Source: Rhodoferax sp.
GTDB lineage: Bacteria; Pseudomonadota; Gammaproteobacteria; Burkholderiales; Burkholderiaceae_C
Direction: 5' to 3'
Length of the DNA: 64,000 nucleotides
Assembly: GCA_020048895.1 (NCBI GenBank)
Contig: JAIFLV010000088.1
Location: 20,182-84,181, forward strand
Position 1 is the stretch's first letter, and each line of letters begins with the position of its first letter. The notes under the pieces were generated by a model. It did not search any database. It saw nothing but the letters and a program-made list of their open reading frames with translations, and was not told the origin of the DNA. Of the stretch, positions 8,259 through 63,577 are shown piece after piece. The position numbers were made by a program, and so were the translations under genes.

Positions 8259-8288
8259 GTTTGTTGGTGAGGGAGCGTGGGGGCCATA

Positions 8289-9689: not shown

Positions 9690-9691
9690 GG

Positions 9692-11770: not shown

Positions 11771-11787
11771 GGGGTGTGCCTTTGCTT

Positions 11788-14335: not shown

Positions 14336-14356
14336 GCGGGACTTTGTGGCGTCATT

Positions 14357-16011: not shown

Positions 16012-16012
16012 A

Positions 16013-41717: not shown

Positions 41718-41990
41718 TCAACAGGGTTTCCAGCGGTTCGCGGCGCTCTTTGCCATAGCGCATTGGGCGGGCGTGAGGCTGTTCTGCAGGTCATCGCGCG
41801 CCCGTGCAGCCAGTGACGGCAGTTGGGTAGCCGCCAGCAGCAGCCAGAAATAGGCGCGCATCCGGTCCCGGGGCATGCCCTGGCCGTCAGCACAGCACAG
41901 GGCAAATTTGAATTGTGCTTCAGGTTGTCCTTGCTCGGCGGCCTTGCGCAGCCAGGCAACGCTCCAGTTTCCTTGCATAACCACCTCCAC
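41718..41990 (-). CDS. Sel1-repeat protein (short, possibly N-terminally truncated)
   Basis: WLRKAAEQGQPEAQFKFALCCADGQGMPRDRMRAYFWLLLAA. Confidence 0.65.
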   Translation of the reverse strand: MEVVMQGNWSVAWLRKAAEQGQPEAQFKFALCCADGQGMPRDRMRAYFWLLLAATQLPSLAARARDDLQNSLTPAQCAMAKSAANRWKPC

Positions 41991-42087
41991 ATCGTGTATT
42001 TGTTACTTCGTTTATCGACCACAACGCGAAACTATTGAATTGCAGTATTGCTGGCGGTGGATCTGCCTCTGCGGTAGAGTTCTGCCC

Positions 42088-42681
42088 ATGCGCACCTCTT
42101 TCGTCACCGCTCTGGCCGCTGGATTTCTTTTACTGGTTGCGGCTCTGCCCGCAGGGGCACAGTTGCCCAAGCGTGACTTGGCGGTGGAAGTTCGCCAGGT
42201 GGAGAGTCGCGACGCCAGCGGCAGTGTGGTGGGAACGCAATCTCCTACCCCCGCACTGCTGGCGCAAAAGGTATTCGTGCGCAATGGCGAAAAAGCCACA
42301 CTGCGCATGAACGTGGCGATGCCGGTGCAATGGGTGCAGCGCATCGATGCGCCATCAAACGGAGGCCAGACGGGAGCGGGGTTGACCAACGCCATCACCT
42401 GGATGGATGCCGGGCAAAGCCTGGTCGTGACGCCCCGCTGGAGCAACGCCAAGCAGCCGGTACAGGTGGACATCGAAATTTTGACCGCCGCTGTGGGAGA
42501 TCGCTCGGGGACCGAATTGCCCAACCAACTGCGCAGCCAAATAGCCACTACGGTGAGCGCGCCACTGGGCGAATGGGTGACGATTGCCACCGCGGATCAA
42601 GCTGGTAAAGCAGGGGTTTACAGCAGTGCGCCCAGTGCCGCTGGGGTGCGTACGATTCAACTGCGGGTCACATCAAATTGA
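42088..42681 (+). CDS. Secreted hypothetical protein, secretin-like segment
   Basis: Signal peptide; QKVFVRNGEKATL and TTVSAPLGEWVTI resemble secretin strands; only 197 aa. Confidence 0.7.
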   Translation: MRTSFVTALAAGFLLLVAALPAGAQLPKRDLAVEVRQVESRDASGSVVGTQSPTPALLAQKVFVRNGEKATLRMNVAMPVQWVQRIDAPSNGGQTGAGLTNAITWMDAGQSLVVTPRWSNAKQPVQVDIEILTAAVGDRSGTELPNQLRSQIATTVSAPLGEWVTIATADQAGKAGVYSSAPSAAGVRTIQLRVTSN

Positions 42682-47544: not shown

Positions 47545-48027
47545 ATGGAACGCATCACCATTTCAATAGACAAAGAACTCGCCGCTGAATTTGACCGCCT
47601 GATCGCCACGCGCGGTTACAAGAACCGCTCGGAGGCCGTGCGTGATCTGGTTCGCTCTCATCTGGAAGCAGATCGGCAGGATGCGGGACCGGCGGGACAC
47701 TGCGTCGCCAATCTGTCCTATGTCTACAACCATCATGAGCGTGATTTGGCCGAGCGTCTCACCGCTTTGCAACATGACCAGCACGACCTTACGGTTGCAA
47801 CCTTGCACGCCCACCTGGACCACGAAAACTGCATGGAAAGCGTGATTTTGCGGGGCCCCACCGCTTCTGTACGCAACTTTTCAGATGCCCTGATTTCGGA
47901 ACGTGGTGTGCGCCATGGGCAACTGAATCTGGTGTCCGCGGAGATCGCGGGGAGCGGCCACCATCACCACAGCCACGGCGCGCATGGCAAGAACCACACC
48001 CACATTCACCTCAAACCCAAGACCTGA
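47545..48027 (+). CDS. nikR: Nickel-responsive regulator NikR with His-rich tail
   Basis: MERITISID RHH, NRSEAVRDL, YVYNHH, HAHLDHENCME, GVRHG. Confidence 0.93.
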   Translation: MERITISIDKELAAEFDRLIATRGYKNRSEAVRDLVRSHLEADRQDAGPAGHCVANLSYVYNHHERDLAERLTALQHDQHDLTVATLHAHLDHENCMESVILRGPTASVRNFSDALISERGVRHGQLNLVSAEIAGSGHHHHSHGAHGKNHTHIHLKPKT

Positions 48028-48045
48028 TGGGCAGGGACCGGTAGC

Positions 48046-48780
48046 TCAAAGTCGTTGTCGACCCAGCGGTAGCTCCAAATGGCAGCGCTCCAAAAGGTCT
48101 TTGTCCGCAAAGATCGCGTCCGGCGAACCGTCCGCCTCAAGACGCCCGTGGTGCATGACAAGCACCCTTGAACAAACGTCCTCTACCAAGTCCAGATCAT
48201 GGGTTGCAATGATCTTGGTCAAATCCAATCCCATAAGCAAGTTGATCAGACGTCGACGAGCTGCCGGATCCAGGCAGTCACTGGGCTCGTCCATGACAAG
48301 TATGGAGGGGGACATTGCCAGGACGCCAGCGATGGCCACGGCACGCTTCTCTCCGCCAGATAGTCTGTAGGGCGGTCGCCCTGCCAAATGACTCGATCCC
48401 ACCGTCGCAAGAGCAGCCTCTACACGCGAGCGGACGTCCGCCAATGGCAGGCCCATGTTGGTCGGACCGAAAGCCACGTCGTCAAAGACCGTCGGCATGA
48501 ACAACTGGTCATCGGGGTCCTGGAAGACCAACCCCACGGTGCGCCGTACCTCAGCCAAGGTGCCAGCAGAAATCGCAGCATCATTCACCCGCACCTCGCC
48601 AGCGGTGGCTCTCAGCACACCGTTGAGATGCAGCAGGAGCGTCGATTTGCCAGCGCCGTTGCTGCCTATGATGCCGACCGATTCCCCTCGGCAAATGCCA
48701 AAGCTCACACCTTGCAAAGCCCTGCGTCCATCCGGGTAGGTGAAAGACAACTCTCGCGCTTGCAGTTGAAAGTGACTCAA
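48046..48780 (-). CDS. cbiO: ECF transporter ATPase (CbiO/NikO)
   Basis: GSNGAGKST, FQDPDDQLF, LSGGEK, DEP, ATHD. Confidence 0.92.
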   Translation of the reverse strand: MSHFQLQARELSFTYPDGRRALQGVSFGICRGESVGIIGSNGAGKSTLLLHLNGVLRATAGEVRVNDAAISAGTLAEVRRTVGLVFQDPDDQLFMPTVFDDVAFGPTNMGLPLADVRSRVEAALATVGSSHLAGRPPYRLSGGEKRAVAIAGVLAMSPSILVMDEPSDCLDPAARRRLINLLMGLDLTKIIATHDLDLVEDVCSRVLVMHHGRLEADGSPDAIFADKDLLERCHLELPLGRQRL

Positions 48781-49586
48781 GTGACCCGCCCCATCAAGGC
48801 TGCACCCAGCAGATGTGACAGATTAAAGTGGCGCGCGCCAATGCAGCCAGCCCAGCACGCAGCCAGAAACATCGAATCGGTTGTACGCCACAGCAACACC
48901 CGGTTAGAGCGCATTTCACCGCTGAATCCTCTGGATATCATGGCCTGATAGATGCGCTGGGAGCGGTCCATTGCCCGTAACAGCAGGTGGCCGAGCAAGG
49001 GCCCATAGACCGCCAGTGGCAATGACTTTGCGCCACCACGAAGCTCACGCGCCAGATTCATGCGGCCTACTTCACCTGCGAGCACCAAGGCATAGCGGTG
49101 CATGAACAATAGTTGGTTGGTAAGCACCTGCGGTACTCCCAGGCGGGCCAAGCCGACGCAGATCTGGTGAAACCCGGTTGTTGCCACCAGCACCAAGGCC
49201 GCACCCACTGTGAGCGCAAAGCGGACAAGGATGGAGGCAAACGATATCCAGCCCCCGGATACCGAGATCCCAAAGAGTTCAAGGACTATCTTGTGATCCA
49301 TCAAAGGGTTGAAGATGCCCACCATGATGGCAAACGGCGCCGCCGCCAAAATCTTTATCCAAATGGCCTTCAGTGGAACTTCGCCCAGAACTGCGATCAC
49401 CACTGGGAACAAGGCAAAAGGTAGCAAGGCAGCGACTGCATACCTGTCAAAGGACACCACGGTGATGATGAATCCCAGTGTGGCAAGAATCTTGGCCCGC
49501 GGGTCCAGTCCAGACAGGGCAGTTTGTCGCGTTGAAAAGGCGTCCAGTGACGCAAATTCATCGAGCGCAGATTGGATGCTGCTCAC
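48777..49586 (-). CDS. cbiQ: ECF transporter T component (CbiQ/NikQ)
   Basis: LDPRAKI, multiple TMs, RAMDRSQRIYQAMISRGF. Confidence 0.92.
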   Translation of the reverse strand: MSSIQSALDEFASLDAFSTRQTALSGLDPRAKILATLGFIITVVSFDRYAVAALLPFALFPVVIAVLGEVPLKAIWIKILAAAPFAIMVGIFNPLMDHKIVLELFGISVSGGWISFASILVRFALTVGAALVLVATTGFHQICVGLARLGVPQVLTNQLLFMHRYALVLAGEVGRMNLARELRGGAKSLPLAVYGPLLGHLLLRAMDRSQRIYQAMISRGFSGEMRSNRVLLWRTTDSMFLAACWAGCIGARHFNLSHLLGAALMGRVT

Positions 49587-49609
49587 AACGGCTTGTTATG
49601 AACCACGAA

Positions 49610-50689
49610 TCATCCAGGAGTACCTGCATCGACGTCGACCTTCCTGCGTCGACGCAATAGGTAGGCCACCAATGTGACGAGACTCAATGTTGCAAGCCCG
49701 CCAATAACACCTGCAAGCGAAGTCCCAGCATCGACCGCAGGCCATGCTTCACTTGTGGCTGATTTTTCTGGTTCTGGTGCTGTCTCCTTTACATCGGAGG
49801 AGAACTTGTAATCGGGAAATATTGTCAGACTCTTTTGAAACTCTTCCAGTCGCGTATGAACGGATTCTTTCGCCGCCAACTCAGCGCTTCCGGTGACACG
49901 TGCGATGCTCCACTCCAAACCATCGGGCTGCGATGAAGCGAACCAGGAGAATACCCCTGCCGTGAACAGTGCCAACACTCCCAGGCCAGCAATCAACTTT
50001 GCAGGGAACGTGGAAGACAAAGACGGCCCGCCCGCCGCTCTTTCATCAACAAACAGGTCAGGCCGGGCTTCTCGCACGAAGTGGATAAGTGCTGCCGTTG
50101 CGAGGCCCTCTACCAGCCCGATGGCAAGGTGTATCGGTTGCATGAGGAGCAAAAAGGTGCTCAGCGGCAAGCTACTGATTCCCGAGAATTGGGTCTGTGT
50201 CACCACACCCAGGGAACCCAGTTGCAGGCTGACGACCGTTGCAAGGACGGTGATGGCCGCCATGCGACGCTTCGACGCCAGCACCCCGGCGCGCTTGAGC
50301 AAGGGGCGATAGATCAGCGGCAGCCCGATGAAGCAGGGGAGCACACCCAGATTGAAGATATTGGCACCCAGAGCAAGCAGTCCACCATCGGCAAAGAACA
50401 ATGCCTGCACCGTCAGCACCGATGCAATGACAACAAAGGCCGCGTAGGGCCCCAACAATATGGATAACAGCAACCCGCCACCAATATGCCCGCTCGATCC
50501 CGTACCGGGAATCGTGAAGTTAATCATCATTGCGGCAAAGACGAATGCACCCAGCACGCCCATCAGTGGGACAAGGTAGTCCCGCGGGTCGCTGCGGACC
50601 TTTCTGGAAGAGATCGCCAATGCGGTACCGGTAGCTGTCCAAAAGGCGATTCCAACGGCAGGAGAGAGCAGGGCATCGGCCATGTGCAT
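49610..50689 (-). CDS. cbiM: ECF Ni/Co S component fused to a PDGLE (NikN-like) domain
   Basis: MHMADAL metal-binding N-terminus, GSSGHIGG, QALFFADGG, SQPDGLEWS. Confidence 0.9.
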   Translation of the reverse strand: MHMADALLSPAVGIAFWTATGTALAISSRKVRSDPRDYLVPLMGVLGAFVFAAMMINFTIPGTGSSGHIGGGLLLSILLGPYAAFVVIASVLTVQALFFADGGLLALGANIFNLGVLPCFIGLPLIYRPLLKRAGVLASKRRMAAITVLATVVSLQLGSLGVVTQTQFSGISSLPLSTFLLLMQPIHLAIGLVEGLATAALIHFVREARPDLFVDERAAGGPSLSSTFPAKLIAGLGVLALFTAGVFSWFASSQPDGLEWSIARVTGSAELAAKESVHTRLEEFQKSLTIFPDYKFSSDVKETAPEPEKSATSEAWPAVDAGTSLAGVIGGLATLSLVTLVAYLLRRRRKVDVDAGTPG

Positions 50690-50738: not shown

Positions 50739-50804
50739 TATTTGGTGGCCGAAAATTCCAGTCCTTGTCTGCAGGCCTCCTGCGAGGCTGACATAATGCG
50801 CACG

Positions 50805-51164
50805 ATGCAAACCCTGCGACGATTCACCATGCTCACGCGCCTCGTGCTGGCGTGGTTTGTGCTGTCGCTAGGCGTTGCTGTGGCCGCACCTGTCATCGCA
50901 CCACAACATATTCTTTTTGTTTGTACTGGCACGGGAGCCATGAAGGTGCTGACCCAGGTTGAGGATGGCAGCACTACGGAACAAGTTCATTCCAGGATGG
51001 ACTGCCCGCTGTGCGCGACAGTGTCGGCGCCACCACCGCAACCAGGCGTAGCGGTGCCACACCTTTGTGCTCTGTCATATGCCCTCCATGGCGTTCCTGT
51101 AGCTTTCATTGCAGCGCGTACTGCTTCGCCCATGCCGGCGCGCGGTCCACCCGCATTGTCCTGA
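50805..51164 (+). CDS. DUF2946 family (CruR-like) protein 1
   Basis: TM LVLAWFVLSLGVAVAAP, VCT, CPLC, C-terminal ARGPP. Confidence 0.88.
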   Translation: MQTLRRFTMLTRLVLAWFVLSLGVAVAAPVIAPQHILFVCTGTGAMKVLTQVEDGSTTEQVHSRMDCPLCATVSAPPPQPGVAVPHLCALSYALHGVPVAFIAARTASPMPARGPPALS

Positions 51165-51293
51165 ATCCGCTACGTATTTCGTAGCGTTCTGCGCCCATTC
51201 CATAGAGGAGTGGGCAGCATTTCGTTGATCGATCCGGCAGGTAGGTGTTCAACGCGAGTGCATTTCTCTGTCCACTTCTACGAACTTTCATCC

Positions 51294-51776
51294 ATGAAAT
51301 ACATTGCAAAACTCACATCCGTTATTGTTGTAGCCACCTTCTCCACGGTGGCCCTGGCCCAATCCGTAGACGTCAAAGACGCCTGGGCGCGCTCCACCGT
51401 GCAGGGGCAAAAGGCCACCGGTGCTTTCATGAAGCTCACCGCCAAGGAGGGCGCCAAGCTGGTGGGCGGCTCATCGCCCGCGGCAGGCGTGGTCGAAGTT
51501 CATGAAATGAAAATGGAAGGCGACGTCATGAAGATGCGTGCCGTCCCCGGCGGGCTCGATCTACCTGCAGGCAAGGCGGTGGAACTCAAGCCCGGCGGCT
51601 ACCACGTGATGCTGATGGACCTGAAAGCGCCGCTCATGAAAGACTCCACCGTTCCTCTAACCCTGGTGTTCAAGGACGCCAAAGGTGTGGAGAGCAAGGT
51701 CGAATTGAAGGTGCCTGTATCCACCGTGGCGCCAGGCCCAGCGATGCAGATGGACCACAGCCAGCACAAGATGTAA
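51294..51776 (+). CDS. Copper chaperone PCu(A)C
   Basis: Signal peptide, DAWAR, EVHEMKMEGDVMKM, LKPGGYHVML; Met/His C-terminal tail. Confidence 0.95.
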   Translation: MKYIAKLTSVIVVATFSTVALAQSVDVKDAWARSTVQGQKATGAFMKLTAKEGAKLVGGSSPAAGVVEVHEMKMEGDVMKMRAVPGGLDLPAGKAVELKPGGYHVMLMDLKAPLMKDSTVPLTLVFKDAKGVESKVELKVPVSTVAPGPAMQMDHSQHKM

Positions 51777-51905
51777 TTCCATTTCTAAATCATCCGTGTC
51801 GTTGTTGCTTGGCCTTGTCCACCCAAAGCATCTGAAGATGCTTTGGGACACGCCTCAGCACTGCGTGCGGCTTCGCGCCTAGACACAAATGATTTGGAAA
51901 CGGAA
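51777..51905. mobile_element. MITE-like 129-bp element
   Basis: 24-bp imperfect terminal inverted repeats (20/24), TAA on both flanks, internal perfect 11-bp hairpin CCCAAAGCATC-TGAA-GATGCTTTGGG. Confidence 0.6.
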
Positions 51906-51944
51906 TAAGTTGACCCCGCCCCTCAATCTCGGCCAGTCGCCCTC

Positions 51945-52355
51945 ATGCGCGGTTCCGTGATGCTGTCGTTGCCGTACCGACGTTGGTCGGTGTGGCTGGC
52001 TTTGTGCGTCGCTGTGTTCACGGCAATGGCGCCCACGCTCGCGCGAGCGTTTGCTGCCGCACAGAGCGGCTCGGGCCAGGGCTTTGAGATCTGTACGGCG
52101 CAGGGCTCGCGCTGGGTGGCCGTCAGTAGTGCGAACGCTTTGGTCGATTCCTCATCCGGGCAGGACTCCACGCCTTCACTTTCGCATTGCCCGTTTTGCC
52201 TGCTTAGCGCAGACCGCTGCGCCCCGCCTCCTTCAGCGGTTACCTACCGCTTCGTGTCCCAAGACGCACAACCGAATGCCAGCACAGGGCAGACTTTTGT
52301 CTACCTTGCGCAACCGTACACGCGCGCATCGCCCCGTGGACCTCCGATTTCCTGA
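51945..52355 (+). CDS. DUF2946 family (CruR-like) protein 2
   Basis: TM VWLALCVAVFTAMAP, EICTAQG, HCPFC, C-terminal PRGPP. Confidence 0.88.
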   Translation: MRGSVMLSLPYRRWSVWLALCVAVFTAMAPTLARAFAAAQSGSGQGFEICTAQGSRWVAVSSANALVDSSSGQDSTPSLSHCPFCLLSADRCAPPPSAVTYRFVSQDAQPNASTGQTFVYLAQPYTRASPRGPPIS

Positions 52356-52481
52356 ACTCCTAAGTTTGTAGCACTCTGCGCTTCCTACCCGGAGGCTGGA
52401 GGCCTTTTTGACCGCAAGGAAGTTGCCGTGTGCAGCAGCCCTTGCATCGCATTTTCAAATCTTCAAGTTCAGGATCATCCA

Positions 52482-53426
52482 ATGAAACAAGCATCCCTAC
52501 CTATCATCGCCTCCTTCAGCCTCGTTGCGGCAGCCGTTCTCACCGCATGCGGTGGCGGCGGCAGCGACGGCCCCCTGCCCGACAAGGTGGTGGCCATCAA
52601 CTTTGCAGCCGTCAATGGCAGCACACCCGTCAAGTGCGGAACCCAGCTCACCGGCATGGGCAGCACGGGAGTCGCAGCCGATGTAAAAGACCTGCGCTTC
52701 TACATCACCAACCTTGCCCTGGTGAATGACAAGGGCGTGGCCGTGCCGGTCAAGCTCGACGCCAGCAAGTGGCAACTGACGCAAGGCACCGAGACCGTCT
52801 CCCTGATTGATCTGGAAGACGCCACGGGTGCGTGCGCAACGGCTGCCAATACGGCTGAGACGAACGCCGTCATCACCGGCACTGTTCCGGGGGGCACTTA
52901 CGTCGGCCTGAAGGCCACCGTGGGCGTGCCCGAGGCCATGAACCACAGTGTTGCGGCCGGTGGTGTGCCACCGCTGGACAGCACCGCTTTGCTGTGGTCC
53001 TGGCAGACGGGGCGCAAGTTCACCAAGATCGAGATCAATCCGGTAGGCGGTTTGGTCAAACCCGATGGCACCAGCATTGCGACCTACAACCTGCACATCG
53101 GCTCCACCGGCTGCACACCCAAGCTGGACGCTGCCGGCGTTGCCATCCCCAATACGGGCACTTGCACCAATCTCAACATGGCCGATTTCAGCCTGGCTGC
53201 CTTCGATATGGCGACGCAGAAAGTGGCACTTGATCTGGGACAGTTGTTCAAGACCAGCAACCTGACCAAGGAAAATGGCGGGTCCCCGGGCTGCATGTCC
53301 GGCGCTACCGACCCGGAGTGCGCGGTCATCTTTACTGAACTGCAGGTCAGTTATGGCAGCGGTTCGGACGGTAAGCCGATCAACGGTGGCGCGGCGCAGA
53401 AGATCTTCAAGGCTGTTGCAAAGTGA
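52482..53426 (+). CDS. mbnP: MbnP family copper-binding lipoprotein
   Basis: Lipobox VLTAC, DLRFYITN, MNH, WSW motif (LLWSWQTG), H-IGSTGC, GCMS, six mature Cys; directly upstream of an MbnH-type gene. Confidence 0.88.
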   Translation: MKQASLPIIASFSLVAAAVLTACGGGGSDGPLPDKVVAINFAAVNGSTPVKCGTQLTGMGSTGVAADVKDLRFYITNLALVNDKGVAVPVKLDASKWQLTQGTETVSLIDLEDATGACATAANTAETNAVITGTVPGGTYVGLKATVGVPEAMNHSVAAGGVPPLDSTALLWSWQTGRKFTKIEINPVGGLVKPDGTSIATYNLHIGSTGCTPKLDAAGVAIPNTGTCTNLNMADFSLAAFDMATQKVALDLGQLFKTSNLTKENGGSPGCMSGATDPECAVIFTELQVSYGSGSDGKPINGGAAQKIFKAVAK

Positions 53427-54622
53427 TGCGAGCGCACCGTCAGCTGCCAACCAGACTGTCGGTGTCCGGCGCCCCGTCGTGGGCGCTGGTGACGGCCTTG
53501 GTCGGCGCTGTCGGATTGGCGGGGTGTGGCGGCGGGGCAGACAGCGCCGCCGCAACGGCAAGCGCTTGGGCATGGGCGCTACCACCGGGTTTTTCTGTGC
53601 CCGCCGTGCCAGCTGACAACCCTATGTCCACGGCCAAGGTGGACCTCGGGCGGTTCCTGTTCTATGACAAGCGCCTTTCGGGCAACGGCACCCTGGCCTG
53701 CTCCGGCTGTCACCTGCAGGAAAAGGCGTTCACCGATGGCTTGGCCGTGGCCAAAGGCTCCACAGGCGAGTTCACGCCCCGCAATTCGCAGTCTTTGGGT
53801 AACGTTGCTTACAGTCCGACCCTCACCTGGGCCAACCCGGGCCTGGTGTTGCTGGAGCGCCAGATGGAGGTGCCGCTGTTTGGCGAAAACGTGGTCGAGA
53901 TGGGAATCAACGACGGCAACAAGGCGGCCGTGTTGCAGCGCCTGGCAGATACCAGTCTCTACCCACCCAGGTTCGCGCAGGCATTTCCTGGTGAAGTCAA
54001 TCCCGTTTCGTGGGGCAATGCCATCAGGGCCATCGCCGCATTCCAGCGCTCGCTCATCAGTGGCAACAGCACGTACGACCAGGCTGTGGCCGGCAAAGCG
54101 GTTTTGAGCAGCGCAGAACAGCGCGGCCGGGATCTCTTCTTCGGCTCCAAGGCCGGTTGCTCGCAGTGCCACCACGGATTCAATTTCAACGACCAGGTGG
54201 TGGACGCTAATTCCCAGGCGGTTACGCGAGTGTTTCACAACATCGGCCTGTACAACGTCGGTGGTACCGGTGCCTATCCGGAGCCTAACCGTGGCGTGAT
54301 GGAGCTCAGTGGCCTGTTCAAGGACATGGGCGCTTTTCGGGCACCGAGCTTGCGCAACGTGGAAGTCACGGCTCCGTACATGCACGATGGCAGCATCGCT
54401 ACGCTGGAAGAAGTGATGGATGTGATTGCAGAAAGCGGGCGCAACATTACCAGTGGCGTCTATGCGGGCGATGGTCGCCGCAATCCGTACAAGAGTCCGC
54501 TGGTAACACCGCTCGCACTCACGGACCAGGACAAGTCGGATCTGATTGCGTTCCTGAAGACGCTGACAGACCTCGAGTTCCTGTCCAACCCCCAGCAGTC
54601 TGACCCGTTCAAGGTTTTGTGA
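53426..54622 (+). CDS. mbnH: MbnH family di-heme cytochrome c peroxidase/MauG-like enzyme
   Basis: LGRFLFYDKRLS, CSGCH and CSQCH heme motifs, FRAPSLRNV, APYMHDGS; TGATG overlap with mbnP. Confidence 0.92.
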   Translation: MRAHRQLPTRLSVSGAPSWALVTALVGAVGLAGCGGGADSAAATASAWAWALPPGFSVPAVPADNPMSTAKVDLGRFLFYDKRLSGNGTLACSGCHLQEKAFTDGLAVAKGSTGEFTPRNSQSLGNVAYSPTLTWANPGLVLLERQMEVPLFGENVVEMGINDGNKAAVLQRLADTSLYPPRFAQAFPGEVNPVSWGNAIRAIAAFQRSLISGNSTYDQAVAGKAVLSSAEQRGRDLFFGSKAGCSQCHHGFNFNDQVVDANSQAVTRVFHNIGLYNVGGTGAYPEPNRGVMELSGLFKDMGAFRAPSLRNVEVTAPYMHDGSIATLEEVMDVIAESGRNITSGVYAGDGRRNPYKSPLVTPLALTDQDKSDLIAFLKTLTDLEFLSNPQQSDPFKVL

Positions 54623-54650
54623 CGCTATGTGGGCTGCCAACAAAACGGGA

Positions 54651-54714
54651 AATGCTATTGAATCAGGAGCGCCTTACGCTTACTGGACGGGCGTTATAGG
54701 CATTATTTGTATTT
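54651..54714 (+). repeat. Repeat family A copy between mbnH and the Crp/Fnr gene
   Basis: 21-nt identity with the 17760 copy; ACGCTT..GGGCGT second hairpin. Confidence 0.85.
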
Positions 54715-54725
54715 AAGGAATTGCC

Positions 54726-55373
54726 ATGCAGAACCCAGTGAAAGAACCCATCCCCAATAGTGCGACACGTGTGCTTGCATCGCGCGAAAGCTTGCGGCCG
54801 GGGGAGCTAAAGCAACTTTGGCGACTGGAGGTGGGCGCGGTCCGTATCGACAGCGCGCCGCCGGGTGCGCCGACTCGCTTTGTCCGATTGGCCTTGCCCG
54901 GTGATGTGATTGGCGTGGAGCAGTGGGCGGGTACCGACGAAAGTCTGACCGTGCGCGCCCTCGTACCGACTTGCCTCACACCTTTGGACTCAAAAGGGTA
55001 CCAGGTGATGCAGATTCTGATGGAGTCGGTGGTGACCACCCACCAGCGTTGTGGTGAAGTGGTGAGCCTGCGTACTGGCACGGTGCCGCAACGGGTTAAA
55101 CGCCTTCTGTTGATGCTTGCCCCTGCGGGCCCGGATGTGGCGGGGCAGACCACAGAATGTCCCTTGCCGAACTTGAACGACATGTCCGATGTGCTGGACG
55201 CTGCGATAGAGACGGTGTCGCGTGTGCTGGCCAGCATGCGGCGCAACGACTACCTGCAGGAGCGCAAGCCACAGCGGGCACGCTTTAGCAGTCAGGTGCT
55301 GCGCGAGATTGAAATGGTGGTCGGGATGTCGAATTCGGCCACATCCCAACGTGTGGTCCGTTCGCTGGGATAG
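54726..55373 (+). CDS. Crp/Fnr-family regulator-like protein
   Basis: LWRLEVGAVRI, LALPGDVIG beta-roll; QRVKRLLL; IETVSRVL HTH. Confidence 0.8.
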   Translation: MQNPVKEPIPNSATRVLASRESLRPGELKQLWRLEVGAVRIDSAPPGAPTRFVRLALPGDVIGVEQWAGTDESLTVRALVPTCLTPLDSKGYQVMQILMESVVTTHQRCGEVVSLRTGTVPQRVKRLLLMLAPAGPDVAGQTTECPLPNLNDMSDVLDAAIETVSRVLASMRRNDYLQERKPQRARFSSQVLREIEMVVGMSNSATSQRVVRSLG

Positions 55374-55389
55374 CTTGCGATTGGCGAGG

Positions 55390-56805
55390 TTACGGTCTGG
55401 AAATTATCTGCGATACCGGGTAGCCGCCCATCGTGCCGCGTCCCCGGTACCCGGTCATGCAGGTATCCCCCATCATGCCACCGGCAGCGCAGTCACCATA
55501 GGCCAGCAGGTTGATTTGCGCTGCGCTTAGCGGTGCTATAGGGTCCGAAAGTCTGACGTAAATGGTCATGAAACTGTTGCCAATGCCACCAGGCGCACCG
55601 GGGTGCTTGGCATTCGGCCAGCCGTAGTACAGCCCCTCCGAATTAGCTGCAAAGCCGCCTTCGGCAAAGGTGTTGATGGTGTTGAGGGCGAAGGTCGTTA
55701 CGAGCAGGCCACCTTGGCCGTCGCTGATCGCGGAGAGCTGGTGTGTCAGTGGCACCGTGGTCATGGGCGGCCCCGTCATCGATTCGGTGAGCGTTCCCTT
55801 CAAGTCAGAAACGCTGCCGGCGGTGGAGTTGACCACGAAGCTGCCGTTGAAAATAGTGTCATTGGGTTGGGTGTCGGGTTCAAAGAAAGTGGCTGCCACG
55901 TTGTACTGGGTGATCACCTCCGCCGGTGTGGACGGGTCGCCCTGGTCAACGCTGTTCGACGCCCGCACCGCAAACGCGTATCCGGTGCACGTTACAGGGC
56001 AAGGTACGGCAATTGGTGAGCTGCTGCCACTGGCTGTGATGCCAACCGGGTTGGACACCACGGTGTAGCCGGTGATGGGAGCGCCACCGCTGTTGGCGGG
56101 CCCGACAAAGCTGACCAACACGCTGTTTGCCAAATCCCCGGCAGTCGCCGCCACCCCGGTCGGTGCATCAGGCGCCGCGAGCGCAACCACCGGCACCGTG
56201 ACTGTGATGCTCTGCATCACTTGTGTTGCAGCCAGGTAGCTGGCATCACCGGGTTGGTTGGCGGTGATGGTACAGAGGCCTGCTGCAATGGCCGTGACAG
56301 CCCCCGTGTTTCCGACCACCGAACATACCTGCGGTGTGCTGGTGCCAAAGTGCACCGGCAAGCCGGAACTCGCAGTGGCTTTGACACTGGCGGTGCCATA
56401 CAGAGTCAATTCTGGGGGAGCAGCAAACAGAATCGTCTGCTTTGGGTCGACCAGTACAACCAGACTTTGAGTGGCTTGTGCCGCCGGAGCAAAGTCATCG
56501 TTGCCTTCCTGGTCGGCCGCCAGCATGCAGGTTCCTGCGATGAGTGCTGTCACTTTGCCGGTGTCACGCTGGACGCTGCAAACCGTGCCGGTCAGACTGG
56601 AGTAGGTCACGGCGAGGCCGGCGCTGGAGGTGGCGGCAACCGTGGCGGTCCCGTTCAGGGGCAGAACCGGTGTCGCGCCGAACTGTAGCGTCTGTGCCTG
56701 GGCTTTGATGGCGGGTCCGTCACCGCCACCACAGCCCGTTATCAGTACGGACAGCAAACTACCAGCCACAAAGGCAGATCGAACTCGAACAAGATGGGTC
56801 ATCAT
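55390..56805 (-). CDS. Lipoprotein: two Ig-like repeats, FN3, Met/Cys-rich C-terminal domain
   Basis: Lipobox LITGC; two repeats QTxxF...SGL.V.....VCSV...G.C...A.Q.G; APDAPTGVAA/GGAPITGYTV FN3; tip DCAAGGMMGDTCMTG...GTMGGYP. Confidence 0.85.
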   Translation of the reverse strand: MMTHLVRVRSAFVAGSLLSVLITGCGGGDGPAIKAQAQTLQFGATPVLPLNGTATVAATSSAGLAVTYSSLTGTVCSVQRDTGKVTALIAGTCMLAADQEGNDDFAPAAQATQSLVVLVDPKQTILFAAPPELTLYGTASVKATASSGLPVHFGTSTPQVCSVVGNTGAVTAIAAGLCTITANQPGDASYLAATQVMQSITVTVPVVALAAPDAPTGVAATAGDLANSVLVSFVGPANSGGAPITGYTVVSNPVGITASGSSSPIAVPCPVTCTGYAFAVRASNSVDQGDPSTPAEVITQYNVAATFFEPDTQPNDTIFNGSFVVNSTAGSVSDLKGTLTESMTGPPMTTVPLTHQLSAISDGQGGLLVTTFALNTINTFAEGGFAANSEGLYYGWPNAKHPGAPGGIGNSFMTIYVRLSDPIAPLSAAQINLLAYGDCAAGGMMGDTCMTGYRGRGTMGGYPVSQIISRP

Positions 56806-56814
56806 GCGAACGTC

Positions 56815-59049
56815 CTAAAAGCGCATGCTTAAAGCGAGGTGGATCGAGCGCCCCATGCCCGGCACGGTCGTGCCCCAGGGAATGCCGGTGCTGGTCATCG
56901 AGGCGCCTTGGCCAAGGTAGGCGCCACCCAGCGGCGGTGTGTAGTTGCGGTTGAGCAGGTTCTCGACACCTATATCCAGCCGTGTTTGTTGCCACTGGAC
57001 GCTGCTGCGCCAGTGGACGAGGCCATAACCTGCCGTGGGTATCTCGTTGCGAACGCGTGAGACGTCGGTCTTGGCTGCTACGAGTTGCACTTCGGCGGTG
57101 TTGGTCCAGTCGCCCCAGGTTTGCATGACTGCCAACTTGGCATTGAGCGGCATGATGTTGTAAAGATGGTCACCTGTGCTGCGATTCTCACCGCGGACAT
57201 AGCTCAGCGTGCCGGTTGCCTTGAAACTGCCAGTATCCGCCGTGGCACCCAGGTGCGCCTGGCCCGACAGATCAAAACCGACCAGGCGTGCCATGTGATT
57301 CACATACTGCAGATTGACGAAACCGCTGCTGGCCGTGAGGTTGGCGGTGCCGCCGCATTGCCCGAAATTGCAGCGCTGTGCATCGATGAAATCCTGCACC
57401 TCTGTGATATGGCCTTTCGCCTGCACGCCCCACACGGTCTGGTCGGCATCGTGCCAGTCAGCGCTGACGCTCAGCGTGTGTGCGACTTCCGGTGTCAGGT
57501 CAATGTTGCCGATGTAGCCGTTGCCGTCGCCCACAAAATTGTTCATGAGCGATGCCATGGGCTGTGTGGACCAGGCGTAGCGCTGGTAGAGATTCGGCGA
57601 GTGGGACTTGCGCGCAAAGCCCGCGTCAAAGCTGGCACTGGCTTGTGGCACGTAACGCATCAAGGCAGTGAAGTCCAGATTGTGGTCCGTGCGAACTCGA
57701 TCCAGAGCGTTGAATGCCGCTGCATCACTGGCCCAGATGGCCTGCGCGTTGTAACCCTGGACTGGCCCGGTGTTGGTGCTGACGGTCTCATGCCGGAGTC
57801 CGAGCTGCGTGCGCCATTGGGTGTCCCACAGCGCCTCCCATTCCGCAAACAGTCCGGCCCGGTCGCGCGTGCCGTAGTCCATATTCCAGAATGTTCTAGG
57901 CCCCATGACACCGCCCGCCTGCGGCCACCAGTCGTACAGCGAATAGTTCAGCGCTTCAGCACCAACCCGAATGGTTGTCCGGTCAGACCAGGCAATGTCG
58001 GCCTGGGCCAGTGCCCCTCGGGTCTTGGCCTTGGTGTTCATCGGCATGCCCAGCGTGCCGTAGGAGAACCTGTCTGGCCCCATGTTCATAAAGTGCTCAG
58101 TGTCTTGCCCGTAAGTGCGCGCCTGTAGGCCGCCCCAGGGGAACTTGCCGGTGTAGCGCAGGTTGGCCTGCGTACTGTCATTGCCCGTCATGTCCATGCG
58201 CTGGTTGGGGAAGCCTTCAAACGGAAGGCGTTGGCTGCCCACGTTGAGCTGCAGCAAGTGCCCATCGTTGTGGACCGCCAACGCGATATCCTGGTTCTTT
58301 GCCGTGTAGGCGCTGGAGCCCACCTCGTTACCTGCAAGCCATGCGCCGCCTGATGTACCAGGCCCAGCGGCCTTGAAATCACCACCAGCCAGGTAATTGG
58401 ACGTCTGTGCGCTGGAAGATCGGTAGCCTATATGAATGTTCTGGCTGGCGTAGGTCGCACCCAGGTTGAAACCCCAGGCCCGACCATTGCTGCGGTAAAA
58501 GGTGCCCGCCTCGCCCTGGGTCAGCCTCGCGTCGGCTCTATCTGCGAACTCGGGGGGCGCCGATTGCACCTGGATCGTGCCGCCAATGCTGTCCCCACCT
58601 ACGCTCACGGGCGTGATGCCGGCAAAGACGGAAATGCTACCGACCCGGCTGGGGTCGATGTACGAAAGCGGCGAGTTCATGTGGTTGGGGCAAGCCGCCA
58701 TCAGGTCCATGCCATCGACCTGAATGCGCAGACGGTCATCGGCCAGGCCATGAATCACCGGCAGACTGGAGACGCCTCCGGCACCATACAGGCTCACGCC
58801 GGGCACGTCCTGCAATAGTTGGGCCGTGTCACTGGTAGCGGCGCGCCGGGAGATCAACGCGTCCTTGCCCACCAGAGTGCTTCCGAGGGGTAGGGAGGGC
58901 AATCGGGTGCCTGTGATGACCACTTCGCCCAGGTGCGATGGCGACTGGGCATGCACCCCGCTGGAAGCCACTGCCACAGCCCATGCAAGACTGTTTAGCA
59001 TCGGAGTGGTCAACGTGGCCAAGCGTCGCGAAATGCACGTGGTTTTCAT
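56815..59049 (-). CDS. TonB-dependent receptor, OprC-like copper motif
   Basis: TonB box EVVITG, plug ACPNHM (CxxxM), GVENLLNRNY, C-terminal F; Met-rich loops. Confidence 0.93.
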   Translation of the reverse strand: MKTTCISRRLATLTTPMLNSLAWAVAVASSGVHAQSPSHLGEVVITGTRLPSLPLGSTLVGKDALISRRAATSDTAQLLQDVPGVSLYGAGGVSSLPVIHGLADDRLRIQVDGMDLMAACPNHMNSPLSYIDPSRVGSISVFAGITPVSVGGDSIGGTIQVQSAPPEFADRADARLTQGEAGTFYRSNGRAWGFNLGATYASQNIHIGYRSSSAQTSNYLAGGDFKAAGPGTSGGAWLAGNEVGSSAYTAKNQDIALAVHNDGHLLQLNVGSQRLPFEGFPNQRMDMTGNDSTQANLRYTGKFPWGGLQARTYGQDTEHFMNMGPDRFSYGTLGMPMNTKAKTRGALAQADIAWSDRTTIRVGAEALNYSLYDWWPQAGGVMGPRTFWNMDYGTRDRAGLFAEWEALWDTQWRTQLGLRHETVSTNTGPVQGYNAQAIWASDAAAFNALDRVRTDHNLDFTALMRYVPQASASFDAGFARKSHSPNLYQRYAWSTQPMASLMNNFVGDGNGYIGNIDLTPEVAHTLSVSADWHDADQTVWGVQAKGHITEVQDFIDAQRCNFGQCGGTANLTASSGFVNLQYVNHMARLVGFDLSGQAHLGATADTGSFKATGTLSYVRGENRSTGDHLYNIMPLNAKLAVMQTWGDWTNTAEVQLVAAKTDVSRVRNEIPTAGYGLVHWRSSVQWQQTRLDIGVENLLNRNYTPPLGGAYLGQGASMTSTGIPWGTTVPGMGRSIHLALSMRF

Positions 59050-59073
59050 CGCTGGGATTCTAGGGAAGTGCGC

Positions 59074-59097
59074 GTTTGCGTTTGGTCAAACGCAGAC
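59074..59097. promoter_or_regulatory. Dyad (candidate operator) upstream of the TonB receptor
   Basis: GTTTGCGTTTG-GT-CAAACGCAGAC. Confidence 0.5.
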
Positions 59098-59267: not shown

Positions 59268-61205
59268 TTATCGCTCACACGTGAGGTTTCGATCATGGGC
59301 CATCTTTCGGTACAAAGTCTGGCGGCTGACTCCCAGAATGCGCGCGGCATGGGAGACATTTCCCTTGGCGGACTCCAGCGCCTGTTGCATGGCGGTCTTG
59401 GCAAGGTCTTCAAGATTGGAGGAAGTTCGCAACGTAGGCACTGCCACCGTCGGCGGCGTGTGCGCCACCAGGTCTTCCACAACGTCATCCGCGAGGTGAC
59501 TCCAACCAATGCAATCTTCATGCGGATCGAGCATGGCGCTGGCGGTTCGCAAAACGCTGGCGAGTTGCCGCAAGTTACCCGGCCATCCGTGCTTCTCCAT
59601 TTTTTCCAGTACTTCCGTACCAAGGCGAACATTGCGATCAGGGTTCAGTCCTGCCAGCAATCTGTGAGTGAGCGCCTGAAAATCTGTTCGCTCGCGCAAT
59701 GGGGGGAGTTGAATGGTGAGACCGTTGATTCGGTAGTACAGGTCGTTGCGAAACCGGCCCTTGTCCGCCTCTTCGCGTAGTTTGGAATGGGTAGCACAGA
59801 CAAGAGCGAAGTCCACTTCCATCGAGCGCCCGCCACCGAGTGGAGTCACACAGCGCTCCTGCAGCACCCGCAGCAACCGGGTTTGCATGTTCAGTGGCAT
59901 GTCCCCGATCTCATCCAGAAACAGCGTGCCGCCGTTTGCCTCACGCAGGCGACCCAGGCTTCCTTCCTTTTTTGCCCCGGTAAACGCCCCGGGTGCATAG
60001 CCAAACAGCTCGGACTCGATCAGACTTTCGGGAATGGCTGCGCAGTTGATGGCAACAAACGGACCTGATCGGCGCGCGCTGGTGTCATGCATGGCACGGG
60101 CGAAGTATTCCTTTCCCACACCCGACTCTCCCTGAATGAGTACCGGTATCGGCTTGTTCAGCACGCGGCGCGCCTTGTCGGCCGCGTTGCGCCACCGCAC
60201 ATCGCCTGTATCCAGGCAGGAAAGCGCGTCGACGGGTGAACGATCGTGCTTTGCGGCTTGATGGATTCCATTTGTCGACCGCGCCTCTGGGGTATGTACA
60301 ACGGCAAACAGTGTGTGGGCGTTACGCGTTCGGATTTGCATCGGTAAACCGGGGTTGCGCCTGCAACGCGACAGCAACTCGTCCATCCGAAGGTCCACAG
60401 CGCGCTCGAGCGGCGTAACGCCTAAATTGGAACGATTGAGCTGTAGGCAGGTCATTGCAGCCCGGTTGGCACCGACAATCCAACCATCTTCAGAGACTGA
60501 AACGATGCCTTCGGCCACGGTACCAATGCCTTCAGGCTGTGCGTGCAGATGAATTCGGATTCCACGTGAGCCTTGAGCGACCATCAAGCGGTTCTCAATC
60601 ATCCGTGCAGCCGTGCTGACCAAGCCTAACGTATGGGGATGCCCGTTGTGCTGGTCTCCCGAGATGTCCAGGATGCCCATCAGCCCCCCCTTGGCAGACA
60701 TGATGGGTGAAGCGGCACAGGTAAGAAAGCTGTTGCGTTCCAAGAAGTGCTCCTGGCCATGGACTTCCACCCCCGTGCCTTCGGCGAGCGCGGTGCCGAT
60801 CGCATTGGTCCCGCGTTGCGACTCGTGCCACGATGCTCCTGACGCTAAAGCAACCCGCTGCGCTTTATCAAGAAAGACAGCGTCACCCAGGGTGTGCATC
60901 AAGGTGCCCCGGTTGTCCGCAAGGACCACGACATTCTGGTTATGGCGCACCTGTTCAAACAAGTACTCCATCACCGGCCGGGAGTGGGCCAGCAGTTCGT
61001 GGTTTTGCATCAAGATCTGGCGCAATTCATTTCCGCTGCTGTGATCTGGCATCTGCAAGCGACCATCTGGTAGCAGGCCCGCGGCCATGCTGCGACTCCA
61101 GGAGCGTGCGATGCGCCCATCGAGCCCACTTTCGGGTACAGATCCAAATTCCATGAGATGCTCGCGAGCATGATGGACGGCCAAAGCGTGTTGGGGGGTG
61201 TGCAC
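59268..61205 (-). CDS. acoR: Sigma54-dependent enhancer-binding protein, AcoR-like (GAF-AAA+-Fis HTH)
   Basis: RGTNAIGTAL GAF, GESGVGKE, ESELFGYAPGAFTGA, LFLDEIGD, WPGNLRQL, HTH; GTG start after AGGAG. Confidence 0.9.
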   Translation of the reverse strand: MHTPQHALAVHHAREHLMEFGSVPESGLDGRIARSWSRSMAAGLLPDGRLQMPDHSSGNELRQILMQNHELLAHSRPVMEYLFEQVRHNQNVVVLADNRGTLMHTLGDAVFLDKAQRVALASGASWHESQRGTNAIGTALAEGTGVEVHGQEHFLERNSFLTCAASPIMSAKGGLMGILDISGDQHNGHPHTLGLVSTAARMIENRLMVAQGSRGIRIHLHAQPEGIGTVAEGIVSVSEDGWIVGANRAAMTCLQLNRSNLGVTPLERAVDLRMDELLSRCRRNPGLPMQIRTRNAHTLFAVVHTPEARSTNGIHQAAKHDRSPVDALSCLDTGDVRWRNAADKARRVLNKPIPVLIQGESGVGKEYFARAMHDTSARRSGPFVAINCAAIPESLIESELFGYAPGAFTGAKKEGSLGRLREANGGTLFLDEIGDMPLNMQTRLLRVLQERCVTPLGGGRSMEVDFALVCATHSKLREEADKGRFRNDLYYRINGLTIQLPPLRERTDFQALTHRLLAGLNPDRNVRLGTEVLEKMEKHGWPGNLRQLASVLRTASAMLDPHEDCIGWSHLADDVVEDLVAHTPPTVAVPTLRTSSNLEDLAKTAMQQALESAKGNVSHAARILGVSRQTLYRKMAHDRNLTCER

Positions 61206-61320
61206 TGTGTCTCCTGGACAGACTTTTGTCTGTTCTCTATTGTCAAAACCGGCTTGATCGTACTCAAGGCCATCAACCCTGACGATATGTAATGCCATGC
61301 ATAGAGACCCGGTAGGTGAT

Positions 61321-61339
61321 GTGTCACTTTTTGTGACAC
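61321..61339. promoter_or_regulatory. Candidate AcoR upstream activating sequence
   Basis: Perfect dyad GTGTCAC-TTTTT-GTGACAC followed by another TGTCAC half-site, about 100 bp upstream of the -24 box. Confidence 0.65.
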
Positions 61340-61435
61340 CTGTCACGATTTACACCACCGAACGGTCATTCGGGTTAACCCGAAAGCCGAAAAAAATTGT
61401 GTTTGAAATCAACGGCCTAGAAAAGTTGAACGGAT

Positions 61436-61450
61436 TGGCATGGGAATTGA
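61436..61450 (+). promoter_or_regulatory. Sigma54 -24/-12 promoter candidate
   Basis: TGGCATG-GGAA-TTGA (consensus TGGCACG-N4-TTGC); correct spacing, -12 GA instead of GC. Confidence 0.55.
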
Positions 61451-61509
61451 GAAGTAGAAGTACCCGCAAGGGAAATTCTTGAACCCATTTACAACTTCCG
61501 GAGACTTTC

Positions 61510-63030
<1,521 letters not shown>

Positions 63031-63098
63031 TCGAACCCCCTGAGCCGCGCCCGCGTTCTGGGATGAGGCATTGCGCTCCGGCGCAGCGCCCAATACCG

Positions 63099-63176
63099 AA
63101 CGCGACGGCCGGATAGGGCTGGCACCGATTTGTGGTACCCCACCATGAGGTGCCTGCCCTATCCGGTTGTCGCGTT
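63099..63176 (+). repeat. 28-bp-stem hairpin between aldB and DUF779
   Basis: AACGCGACGGCCGGATAGGGCTGGCACC ... GGTGCCTGCCCTATCCGGTTGTCGCGTT. Confidence 0.8.
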
Positions 63177-63214
63177 GCGAACGCCAACAAAAGTTCTTTG
63201 AACAGGAAACAAGC

Positions 63215-63577
63215 ATGGTTGACAAAGTTGTAGCCACCCCCGCAGCACTGGAACTGGTGGCGTTTCTCAAGACCAAGCATGGACCTGATCTGATGTTTCA
63301 CCAGTCAGGGGGATGTTGCGACAACAGCGCTGCAAACTGCTTTCTGCCAGGAGAAATCACCATGGGGGCGGGTGATGTTTACCTGGGGGATATAGGTGGC
63401 AGCCCGTTCTACATTGGCAAGGCGCAGTATGAATACTGGAAGCACACCCAACTCATCATTGACGTGATTGAGGGCACGGGCGGCACGTTCTCACTCGAAG
63501 GTCCAGAGGGAAAAGCGTTTCATACACGCTCCAGAGTTTTCACTACTGAAGAAATGAACGAGCTATTGGGCAAATGA
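63215..63577 (+). CDS. DUF779 family protein
   Basis: FHQSGGCCD, QYEYWKHTQLIIDV, FSLEGPEG; usual partner of AldB. Confidence 0.92.
   Translation: MVDKVVATPAALELVAFLKTKHGPDLMFHQSGGCCDNSAANCFLPGEITMGAGDVYLGDIGGSPFYIGKAQYEYWKHTQLIIDVIEGTGGTFSLEGPEGKAFHTRSRVFTTEEMNELLGK

Follow-up and report, generated by a model that had tools for sequence, protein, structure and literature searches.

A copper-acquisition neighbourhood of Rhodoferax sp. in which an OprC-like TonB-dependent receptor is paired with a lipoprotein carrying an undescribed head domain

We analysed a stretch of 64,000 nucleotides (nt) from Rhodoferax sp. (assembly GCA_020048895.1, contig JAIFLV010000088.1, positions 20,182 to 84,181; hereafter the window, to whose numbering all window positions refer) and describe here an eight-gene cluster spanning positions 50796-59049, in which two DUF2946 open reading frames (ORFs), pcuAC, mbnP, mbnH and a Crp/Fnr-family gene on the plus strand face a TonB-dependent receptor (TBDT) and a lipoprotein with a stalk of Ig domains on the minus strand. 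As a whole, the cluster is a member of the published copper-acquisition neighbourhoods built around CruR, the MbnP/MbnH pair (MbnPH) and PCuAC. Within this frame, it is probably a copper-starvation acquisition cluster in which the C-terminal domain of the lipoprotein, here called the head, takes up copper on the cell surface and so serves an importer of OprC-like type. An earlier sequence-only reading of the same DNA had placed the cluster at 50805-59097, in agreement with our limits, and all eight genes are present with the content, order, strands and coordinates that it gave; the copper-acquisition theme that it proposed also holds up.

The best solved relative of the receptor was OprC of P. 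aeruginosa (PDB 6FOK, E 2e-22), with ACPNHMNSPLSYI of the receptor aligned to ACPNRMDAPTSYI of OprC. In the plug, C120 and M124 of the receptor fall on C143 and M147 of OprC, and in the barrel H319 and M321 fall on H323 and M325 (...TYGQDTEHFMNMG versus ...YYNYADHVMDN). In HMMER searches against the PDB, run with the single sequence or with a family profile, the alignment to OprC was limited to its plug and C-terminal barrel and did not take in the HxM region, which was aligned by means of N-terminal fragments of the OprC family, all of 325 amino acids (aa) or less and none of them a full-length OprC. These four residues are the ones with which OprC binds copper, in a CxxxM-HxM site (PMC8610252). 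The CxxxM motif singled out in the sequence-only reading is truly homologous to this site, and the HxM motif completes it. Of 71 near-full-length receptors adjoining a head-domain gene, 66 contain ACPNHMN and 70 contain HxMxMG, and the distance from the Cys to the His is 197-200 residues; the receptor has in addition an invariant M323, and counts 22 Met in 744 residues. Since it keeps the complete CxxxM-HxM site, it most likely imports ionic copper with energy from TonB.

Judged by its sequence, the receptor is OprC-like at the copper site but stands outside the OprC/NosA family, so that its earlier description as OprC-like is right for the four copper ligands, which align, and would go too far as a statement of family membership. 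It shares with OprC/NosA the plug-and-barrel TonB architecture and all four ligands, and differs from them in its low identity (26-27% with OprC over the first 320 residues), in a score below the cut-off of the OprC/NosA equivalog TIGR01778, in the lack of a PepSY_TM reductase gene, of which none follows the receptor in the window, in the extra invariant M323 and in belonging to a clade always paired with a head-domain protein. CrtA (BfrG), a receptor regulated by CruR, imports chelated and not free copper, and receptors of its type have no conserved Cys or Met and are followed by a PepSY_TM gene (PMC12914433). The CrtA family resembles the window receptor as a CruR-associated copper importer tied to PCuAC, Sco and respiratory oxidases, but it has neither the Cys/Met/His site nor the head-domain partner found here. 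An assignment of the receptor as MbnT-like was rejected, since an STN domain is missing from it and sigma/anti-sigma genes do not accompany it. None of the other receptors in the related loci that we fetched was of the OprC type, and the 727-aa one of Pelomonas is siderophore/CrtA-like.

One genome per species was scanned for relatives, which were found in 174 of 185,579 genomes, and 80 loci were examined with profiles made from the window proteins. The carriers belong to the Betaproteobacteria (Rhodoferax, Curvibacter, Ideonella, Pelomonas, Aquabacterium, Gallionellaceae, Sideroxydans, Zoogloea and Dechloromonas) and, beyond these, to Desulfuromonadales, Geobacterales, Anaeromyxobacter and other Myxococcota, Thermodesulfovibrio and Binatia. 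A receptor of the clade adjoins a head-domain gene in 76 of the 80 loci, and three of the four exceptions are truncated by a contig end. The receptor is usually directly upstream of the head-domain gene on the same strand, with the order reversed in a few Myxococcota; in the window the lipoprotein gene starts 9 nt beyond the receptor stop codon, also on the same (minus) strand, and the pair converges on the plus-strand genes. Sequencing runs that contain the locus are DNA metagenomes of microbial mats, freshwater and lakes.

The neighbourhood survey that the sequence-only reading had asked for gave a positive answer: among 36 loci whose flanks extend for 7 kb or more on either side, MbnP and MbnH are encoded in 20, PCuAC in 10 and DUF2946 in 11, and at least one of these in 24. 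Upstream of the pair, 21 of 59 loci carry a CruR gene on the same strand, with only MbnPH, PCuAC, a Crp-like gene or head-domain paralogues in the interval. In three of the numbered loci (L010, L012 and L014) all genes form one array on a single strand, cruR-pcuAC-cruR-mbnP-mbnH-crp-TBDT-lipoprotein, with near-variants in L011, L025 and L089, the last of which reads cruR-sco1-pcuAC-cruR-crp-mbnP-mbnH-TBDT-lipoprotein, again on one strand; the window is an inverted variant of this array. This synteny supports the proposal that the plus-strand genes and the receptor-lipoprotein pair are functionally linked, and other loci carry Sco1 or NosL: Thermodesulfovibrio has the order tonB-exbB-exbD-TBDT-lipoprotein-paralogue-x-Sco1, and L088 has two NosL genes. 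Like these two, loci without the marker families still point to copper or TonB energy. The gene identities, the motifs, the homology of the copper site and the conserved pairing and neighbourhood are shown by the present analysis.

The head itself, of 174 residues, is an undescribed domain without known family or fold. AlphaFold2 modelled the lipoprotein as a string of beta domains with a predicted local distance difference test (pLDDT) of 85.8, and the head alone with a pLDDT of 91.5 and a predicted TM-score (pTM) of 0.89. The head had no match in Pfam even at E 10, and in a Foldseek search of 350,542 PDB chains it had none at E <= 0.001, the best having E 0.018 and the TM-score being at most 0.35; its matches to the Slam-dependent PmSLP and to HphA were not significant. 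When the model of the whole lipoprotein was searched, all that came up were Ig/Fn3 strings of a generic kind, and its sequence matches in the PDB were confined to the Fn3 domain. The head family is small, with 155 clusters (50% identity) out of 1.84 billion representatives. Some heads stand alone and others follow one to about ten Ig repeats, the longest such protein having 1396 aa.

The Met/Cys tip that had been noticed on the lipoprotein turned out to be the most conserved part of its family. Invariant in the head are EPxTQP, M348, Y436-x-D-C439-x3-G-M444-M445-x3-C449-M450-T and M459, with M343 nearly so, and the methionine cluster (GMM, CMT, GTM, SMTGxxM) is carried on the loop between the two cysteines. 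Paralogues keep this Met/Cys core; in one of them, a PEP-CTERM protein (L047 768-1550), both Cys are lost (C to F and C to G) and the methionines of GGMM, MTG and GTM are kept. This paired loss with retention of the methionines suggests that the cysteines are probably a structural disulfide bracketing the methionine loop and not metal ligands, and that C439 and C449 of the window protein probably form such a disulfide. As in TbpA/TbpB, HpuA/HpuB, BtuB/BtuG and SusC/SusD, the lipoprotein gene adjoins the receptor gene, appears to be co-transcribed with it and is presumed to serve surface capture of a ligand, but the window proteins have no sequence or significant fold similarity to these systems, the ligand proposed here is a bare metal ion, and the hosts, free-living freshwater and sediment bacteria, also set the two apart.

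Turning to the plus strand, DUF2946 has been characterised under the name CruR in Bordetella pertussis, where it is the copper-responsive upstream ORF of the operon bp2923-bfrG-bp2921 (PMC9426467). The nascent exported CruR peptide detects copper via CxxC, and as long as translation stalls at its C-terminal RAPP the operon stays on; copper lifts the stall, upon which Rho terminates transcription in the long spacer, and the operon is thereby on when copper is scarce (PMC9426467). According to a synteny survey in the same work, the genes downstream of DUF2946 include those for PCuAC, Sco, MbnPH and TonB receptors, the OprC type among them (PMC9426467). Against PF11162, cruR2 of the window scored 47.1 bits (cut-off 23.7), and cruR1, which at 21.3 bits remained slightly under the cut-off, was recovered by an iterated family profile and has both CPLC and RGPP. 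Both ORFs have a hydrophobic N-terminus; in cruR1 the CPLC is followed after 42 residues by RGPPALS and the stop codon, with three residues after RGPP, and in cruR2 the CPFC is followed after 45 residues by RGPPIS and the stop codon, with two. The same hallmarks are present in 42 of 43 DUF2946 ORFs of the related loci, with a motif spacing of 42-46 residues, tails of mostly 2-3 residues and RGPP (24) or RAPP (18) as arrest motif.

By every sequence criterion, both DUF2946 ORFs are CruR-type copper-responsive upstream ORFs. Since they carry the CruR hallmarks set out in PMC9426467, they are read as regulators and not as parts of a copper relay. Each leader heads its copper-related unit, with a spacer of 129 nt to pcuAC and of 126 nt to mbnP, and the plus strand thus reads as two tandem copper-starvation units under leader control, cruR1-pcuAC and cruR2-mbnP-mbnH with the Crp-like gene; by analogy with B. 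pertussis, the 129-nt cruR1-pcuAC spacer is presumed to be the site of copper-dependent, Rho-dependent attenuation. In common with the CruR prototype, the window ORFs have an export signal, CxxC, R-x-PP 2-3 residues before the stop codon, a spacing of 42-45 residues between the two motifs, the first position in the unit and a long spacer, and the families downstream, PCuAC and MbnPH, both figure in the published synteny survey. They differ from it in that there are two tandem leaders, that the motif is RGPP and not RAPP, and that the receptor operon has no leader of its own. As a side observation, the 168-nt spacer between pcuAC and cruR2 (window 51777-51944) has an unusually stable predicted fold (-62.7 kcal/mol, z -6.0, no shuffled sequence being as stable), with long outer arms, of which the outer arm sequence occurs once in the window, and a perfect 11-bp inner hairpin (51822-51847) without a T-run after it; a terminator, a site of processing and what is left of a repeat element are all conceivable roles for it.

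Of the products of the two units, PCuAC lies far above the PF04314 cut-off of 29.4 bits and matched PDB 9YAH at E 5e-31; it carries H70-x10-M81-x22-H104-x-M106, one residue longer than the canonical H(M)x10Mx21HxM, and a His/Met-rich C-terminal tail. MbnP scored 243.8 bits against TIGR04052 (cut-off 140) and matched PDB 7L6G at E 1e-46, with its W172-S-W174 aligned to the WNW of 7L6G, and MbnH, whose gene overlaps mbnP by 4 nt, scored 467.7 bits against TIGR04039 (cut-off 362.85) and has its CSGCH at residue 93 and its CSQCH at residue 246. The Crp-family assignment is weak (HTH_Crp_2 26.5; PDB Crp-family entries at E 6e-8), and a homologue of this gene lies inside the cluster in Rhodoferax-like relatives.

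MbnH converts a Trp of the WxW motif of MbnP to kynurenine (2025 review), and MbnPH pairs are conserved far beyond the methanobactin producers, where they adjoin receptors (2013 genome-mining paper). The window pair agrees with this "metallo-mystery pair" in that both proteins score above the curated cut-offs, the genes overlap, and the WxW and two haem motifs are present; it differs from it in the lipobox of MbnP and in the neighbouring receptor, which is OprC-like without STN and not MbnT/FecA-like with a sigma/anti-sigma pair. The MbnP lipobox LTAC (window 52482-52560) is followed by GGGGSDGP, and a lipobox is found in at least 26 of 29 MbnP of the related loci (L010-L079); the window MbnH also has one (LAGC, window 53423-53530), as do only 6 of 34 MbnH elsewhere. 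The solved MbnP has been treated as a soluble periplasmic protein, and the tethering of MbnP to the membrane may matter. Long MbnP variants were observed in Gallionellaceae, Sideroxydans and Zoogloea (L005 12816-14441; L013, L015-L017, L020, L023, L035, L040 and L042), of about 540 aa as called, in ORFs of 550-630 codons, with an N-terminal extension before the MbnP domain.

The sequence-only reading had also noted that chalkophore genes are missing from the window. In agreement with this, a Pfam scan of the 30 larger ORFs outside the cluster, which encode for example TamB, a type II secretion cluster, HypD/HypE, sugar-phosphate enzymes, GroEL and PPK2, found no MbnB (DUF692), no MbnC and no cuproenzyme family, and within these ORFs there is no methanobactin operon (mbnA, mbnB, mbnC).

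We propose a mechanism in which CruR attenuation, copper binding by OprC, the MbnH/MbnP chemistry and the role of PCuAC are taken from work on homologues. The cluster would operate as three transcription units, cruR1-pcuAC, cruR2-mbnP-mbnH(-crp) and TBDT-lipoprotein. When copper is scarce, arrest of the leader at R(A/G)PP would let the downstream genes be transcribed, as in CruR, and when copper is sufficient the arrest would be relieved and Rho would terminate transcription in the spacer of ~130 nt. Outside the cell, on an Ig/Fn3 stalk anchored by a lipid or, in the paralogues, by PEP-CTERM, the head would bind Cu(I) by thioether ligands and pass it to the CxxxM-HxM site of the receptor, from which TonB energy would free the copper into the periplasm. 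There, a lipid-anchored MbnP, matured by MbnH through conversion of a Trp of WxW to kynurenine, and PCuAC would take up the periplasmic copper for cuproenzyme assembly. In this scheme we infer the surface location of the head and its copper binding, every hand-over step and the copper control of the minus-strand operon.

As regards the location of the head, stand-alone head genes that encode a signal peptide and PEP-CTERM immediately precede the receptor gene in Rhodocyclaceae, Dechloromonas, Aquabacterium, Pelomonas and Thiobacillaceae, and in one Thiobacillaceae genome such genes are the only partners of the receptor. PEP-CTERM is a tag of proteins sorted to the cell surface by exosortase. 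The stand-alone paralogues (L087 8312-9842; L003 7039-7779; L026, L047, L059, L065 and L083) are present as one or two genes and often paired, the members differing in the inter-cysteine loop, which in some carries an extra GGMM/GGML insertion. Together with the variable and sometimes very long stalks, the PEP-CTERM paralogues indirectly favour an extracellular head. A lipoprotein facing the periplasm from the inner leaflet of the outer membrane, which would be the first acceptor of copper from the receptor and pass it on to MbnP/PCuAC, seems to us unlikely: this would be the default orientation of Proteobacteria lipoproteins, would suit the Gly after the lipid-bearing Cys, which signals outer-membrane sorting, and the fact that MbnP of the same system is also a lipoprotein, and the lack of any Slam-like export gene in the Pfam-annotated neighbourhoods, but it does not fit the PEP-CTERM anchors of head paralogues whose genes immediately precede receptors of this clade, surface proteins typically have such Ig/Fn3 strings, and stalks of up to about ten Ig repeats (in the 1396-aa protein) would, by our estimate, probably exceed the width of the periplasm. 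Separately, we observed type II secretion genes (GspF, E, D, L, K) at window 7023-16269 and a second, short secretin-like ORF at 41854-42678; type II secretion can put lipoproteins on the cell surface in other bacteria (PMC12802150).

The remaining alternatives concern the ligand and the unity of the cluster. Import of a copper chelate or foreign metallophore, as proposed for CrtA, or docking of a copper protein by the head, would be in line with the uptake of chelated copper by the CruR-regulated CrtA (PMC12914433), with a head without known metal-binding fold and with the large ligands usually handled by TonB receptors that have surface lipoproteins (TbpAB, HpuAB, BtuBG); we nevertheless find it rather improbable, given that all four ligands of OprC for naked copper are kept and almost invariant, that CrtA-type receptors have no conserved Cys/Met, and that the invariant Met thioethers of the head are a typical ligand set for Cu(I)/Ag(I). 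Another soft metal (Ag, Hg, Cd), or sequestration and detoxification at the surface in place of uptake, could be imagined from the Met-rich loops that also occur in the copper/silver resistance proteins CusF, PcoC and SilE and from the position of the cluster beside a Ni/Co uptake operon, in a metal-related stretch; against this, the B. pertussis CruR leader turns its operon on in copper scarcity, TonB receptors are importers, and the neighbours PCuAC, Sco1 and NosL are chaperones of cuproenzyme assembly and not efflux pumps or oxidases, so that such a role is very improbable. We give even less credence to an accidental adjacency of the minus-strand pair and the plus-strand genes without joint function: they are convergent in the window and hence not co-transcribed, and a third of the related loci have no MbnPH, PCuAC or DUF2946, but the genes form one-strand single arrays in Rhodoferax-like, Curvibacter, Ideonella and other genomes, and Gallionellaceae again show the association, there in another gene order.

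The proposal of a surface head that feeds copper to the receptor has its own counter-evidence. No Slam or similar surface-lipoprotein export factor was found in neighbourhoods with Pfam-annotated genes, and the receptor reached only 117.2 bits against TIGR01778, for a cut-off of 472.45 (87 bits in the Pelomonas orthologue). Upstream of the receptor-lipoprotein operon there is no CruR leader ORF in the window, a consensus scan gave no promoter or terminator, and Rfam gave no riboswitch; with no leader, promoter match or RNA motif, the copper regulation of this operon is an assumption. About a third of the 36 long-flank loci are without MbnPH, PCuAC and DUF2946, and two metatranscriptomes contained no reads for the region. 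In the head domain there is no conserved His, the Cys pair may be purely structural, and the ligand may be Cu(I), Ag(I) or another.

Table 1. Features of the copper cluster in the window (positions of the window)
Feature	Position	Strand	Remarks
cruR1 (DUF2946 no. 1), 122 aa	50796..51164	+	export signal, CPLC at residue 70, RGPP at 116
leader spacer cruR1-pcuAC, 129 nt	51165..51293	+	function presumed from PMC9426467
pcuAC, periplasmic copper chaperone PCu(A)C, 160 aa	51294..51776	+	PF04314 128.6 bits
cruR2 (DUF2946 no. 2), 136 aa	51945..52355	+	CPFC at residue 82, RGPP at 131
leader spacer cruR2-mbnP, 126 nt	52356..52481	+	
mbnP, 314 aa	52482..53426	+	TIGR04052, W172-S-W174, lipobox LTAC
mbnH, di-haem MauG-like enzyme, 399 aa	53423..54622	+	TIGR04039, CSGCH and CSQCH
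Crp/Fnr-family regulator, 215 aa	54726..55373	+	HTH_Crp_2, PDB Crp-family matches
lipoprotein, whole, 471 aa	55390..56805	-	lipobox LITGC
lipoprotein, N-terminal part	55915..56805	-	signal peptide, lipobox LITGC (Cys25), two Big_2-like Ig domains and one Fn3 = stalk
lipoprotein, C-terminal head domain, residues 298-471 and stop codon	55390..55914	-	beta-rich, undescribed
TonB-dependent receptor, 744 aa	56815..59049	-	plug and barrel, CPNHM at residues 120-124

The cluster (Table 1) is flanked on one side by NikR and a CbiMNQO nickel/cobalt unit and on the other by a sigma-54 activator, an aldehyde dehydrogenase and DUF779. On the first side (window 47545-50689), NikR on the plus strand is divergent from the CbiO-CbiQ-CbiM/N(PDGLE) nickel/cobalt importer of the ECF type on the minus strand, at 106 nt from cruR1. 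Since the window also has, at about 25.7-28 kb, HypD and HypE-like genes for the maturation of hydrogenase, the nickel unit probably serves a NiFe hydrogenase; its position beside the copper cluster is not conserved in other genomes, and NikR with CbiMNQO was rejected as part of the copper system, being a separate nickel/cobalt unit. On the other side (59268-63577), the GAF-domain sigma-54 activator (AcoR/MimR-like) is divergent from the aldehyde dehydrogenase and DUF779 genes, which are catabolic and unrelated to copper. Past the window end, the source contig (L001) carries genes for Fur, a further TonB receptor and an AhpC/redoxin protein. Among the related loci, that of Thiobacillaceae (L087 612-7324) has before the module a FecR, an STN-type receptor, a DJ-1/PfpI-YHS fusion, a receptor and a second DJ-1/PfpI, which may be a further metal-related unit. 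In Desulfuromonadales/Geobacterales (L032 11266-14795; L039 11338-17282; L030 11349-15453) the pair is followed by a conserved ORF of ~180-210 codons without Pfam match and then by a very large protein of 979-1784 aa with only a weak CHB_HEX_C-like match.

The combination of genes had been put forward as one not known from a described system. For the neighbourhood of CruR, MbnPH, PCuAC and a TonB receptor this cannot be maintained, as such neighbourhoods are published; it can be maintained for the receptor clade with its head-domain partner, since in the literature searched we found no description of an OprC-site receptor clade of very low OprC similarity or of its head-domain partner. We tentatively advance the possibility that the head is a new extracellular copper(I)-binding fold, a surface "copper catcher" feeding an unrecognised OprC-site receptor clade. 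If true, this would be the first case in free-living bacteria of a bare transition-metal ion handled by a system of two components, a surface binding protein and a TonB receptor, and the system is spread over Betaproteobacteria, Desulfuromonadales, Myxococcota and Nitrospirota.

Copper entry across the outer membrane in Gram-negative bacteria is known for few cases, namely OprC, MbnT with methanobactin, and CrtA. If the head captures copper, a further route of entry would be added, by which ionic copper passes from a surface protein to a receptor of OprC-like type, and MbnP, PCuAC, Sco1 and NosL would be provided with copper without any chalkophore. The MbnP/MbnH pairs outside methanobactin operons would then have a concrete upstream supplier, and a function would be given to the head protein family, whose members, in at least 520 sequence clusters and 174 species genomes, now bear only uninformative names. 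Several carriers are cultured (Curvibacter, Ideonella, Pelomonas), which makes the idea directly testable. Iron oxidisers, denitrifiers, metal reducers and floc formers from freshwater and sediments make up the carriers, and in these habitats copper supply limits N2O reductase and haem-copper oxidases.

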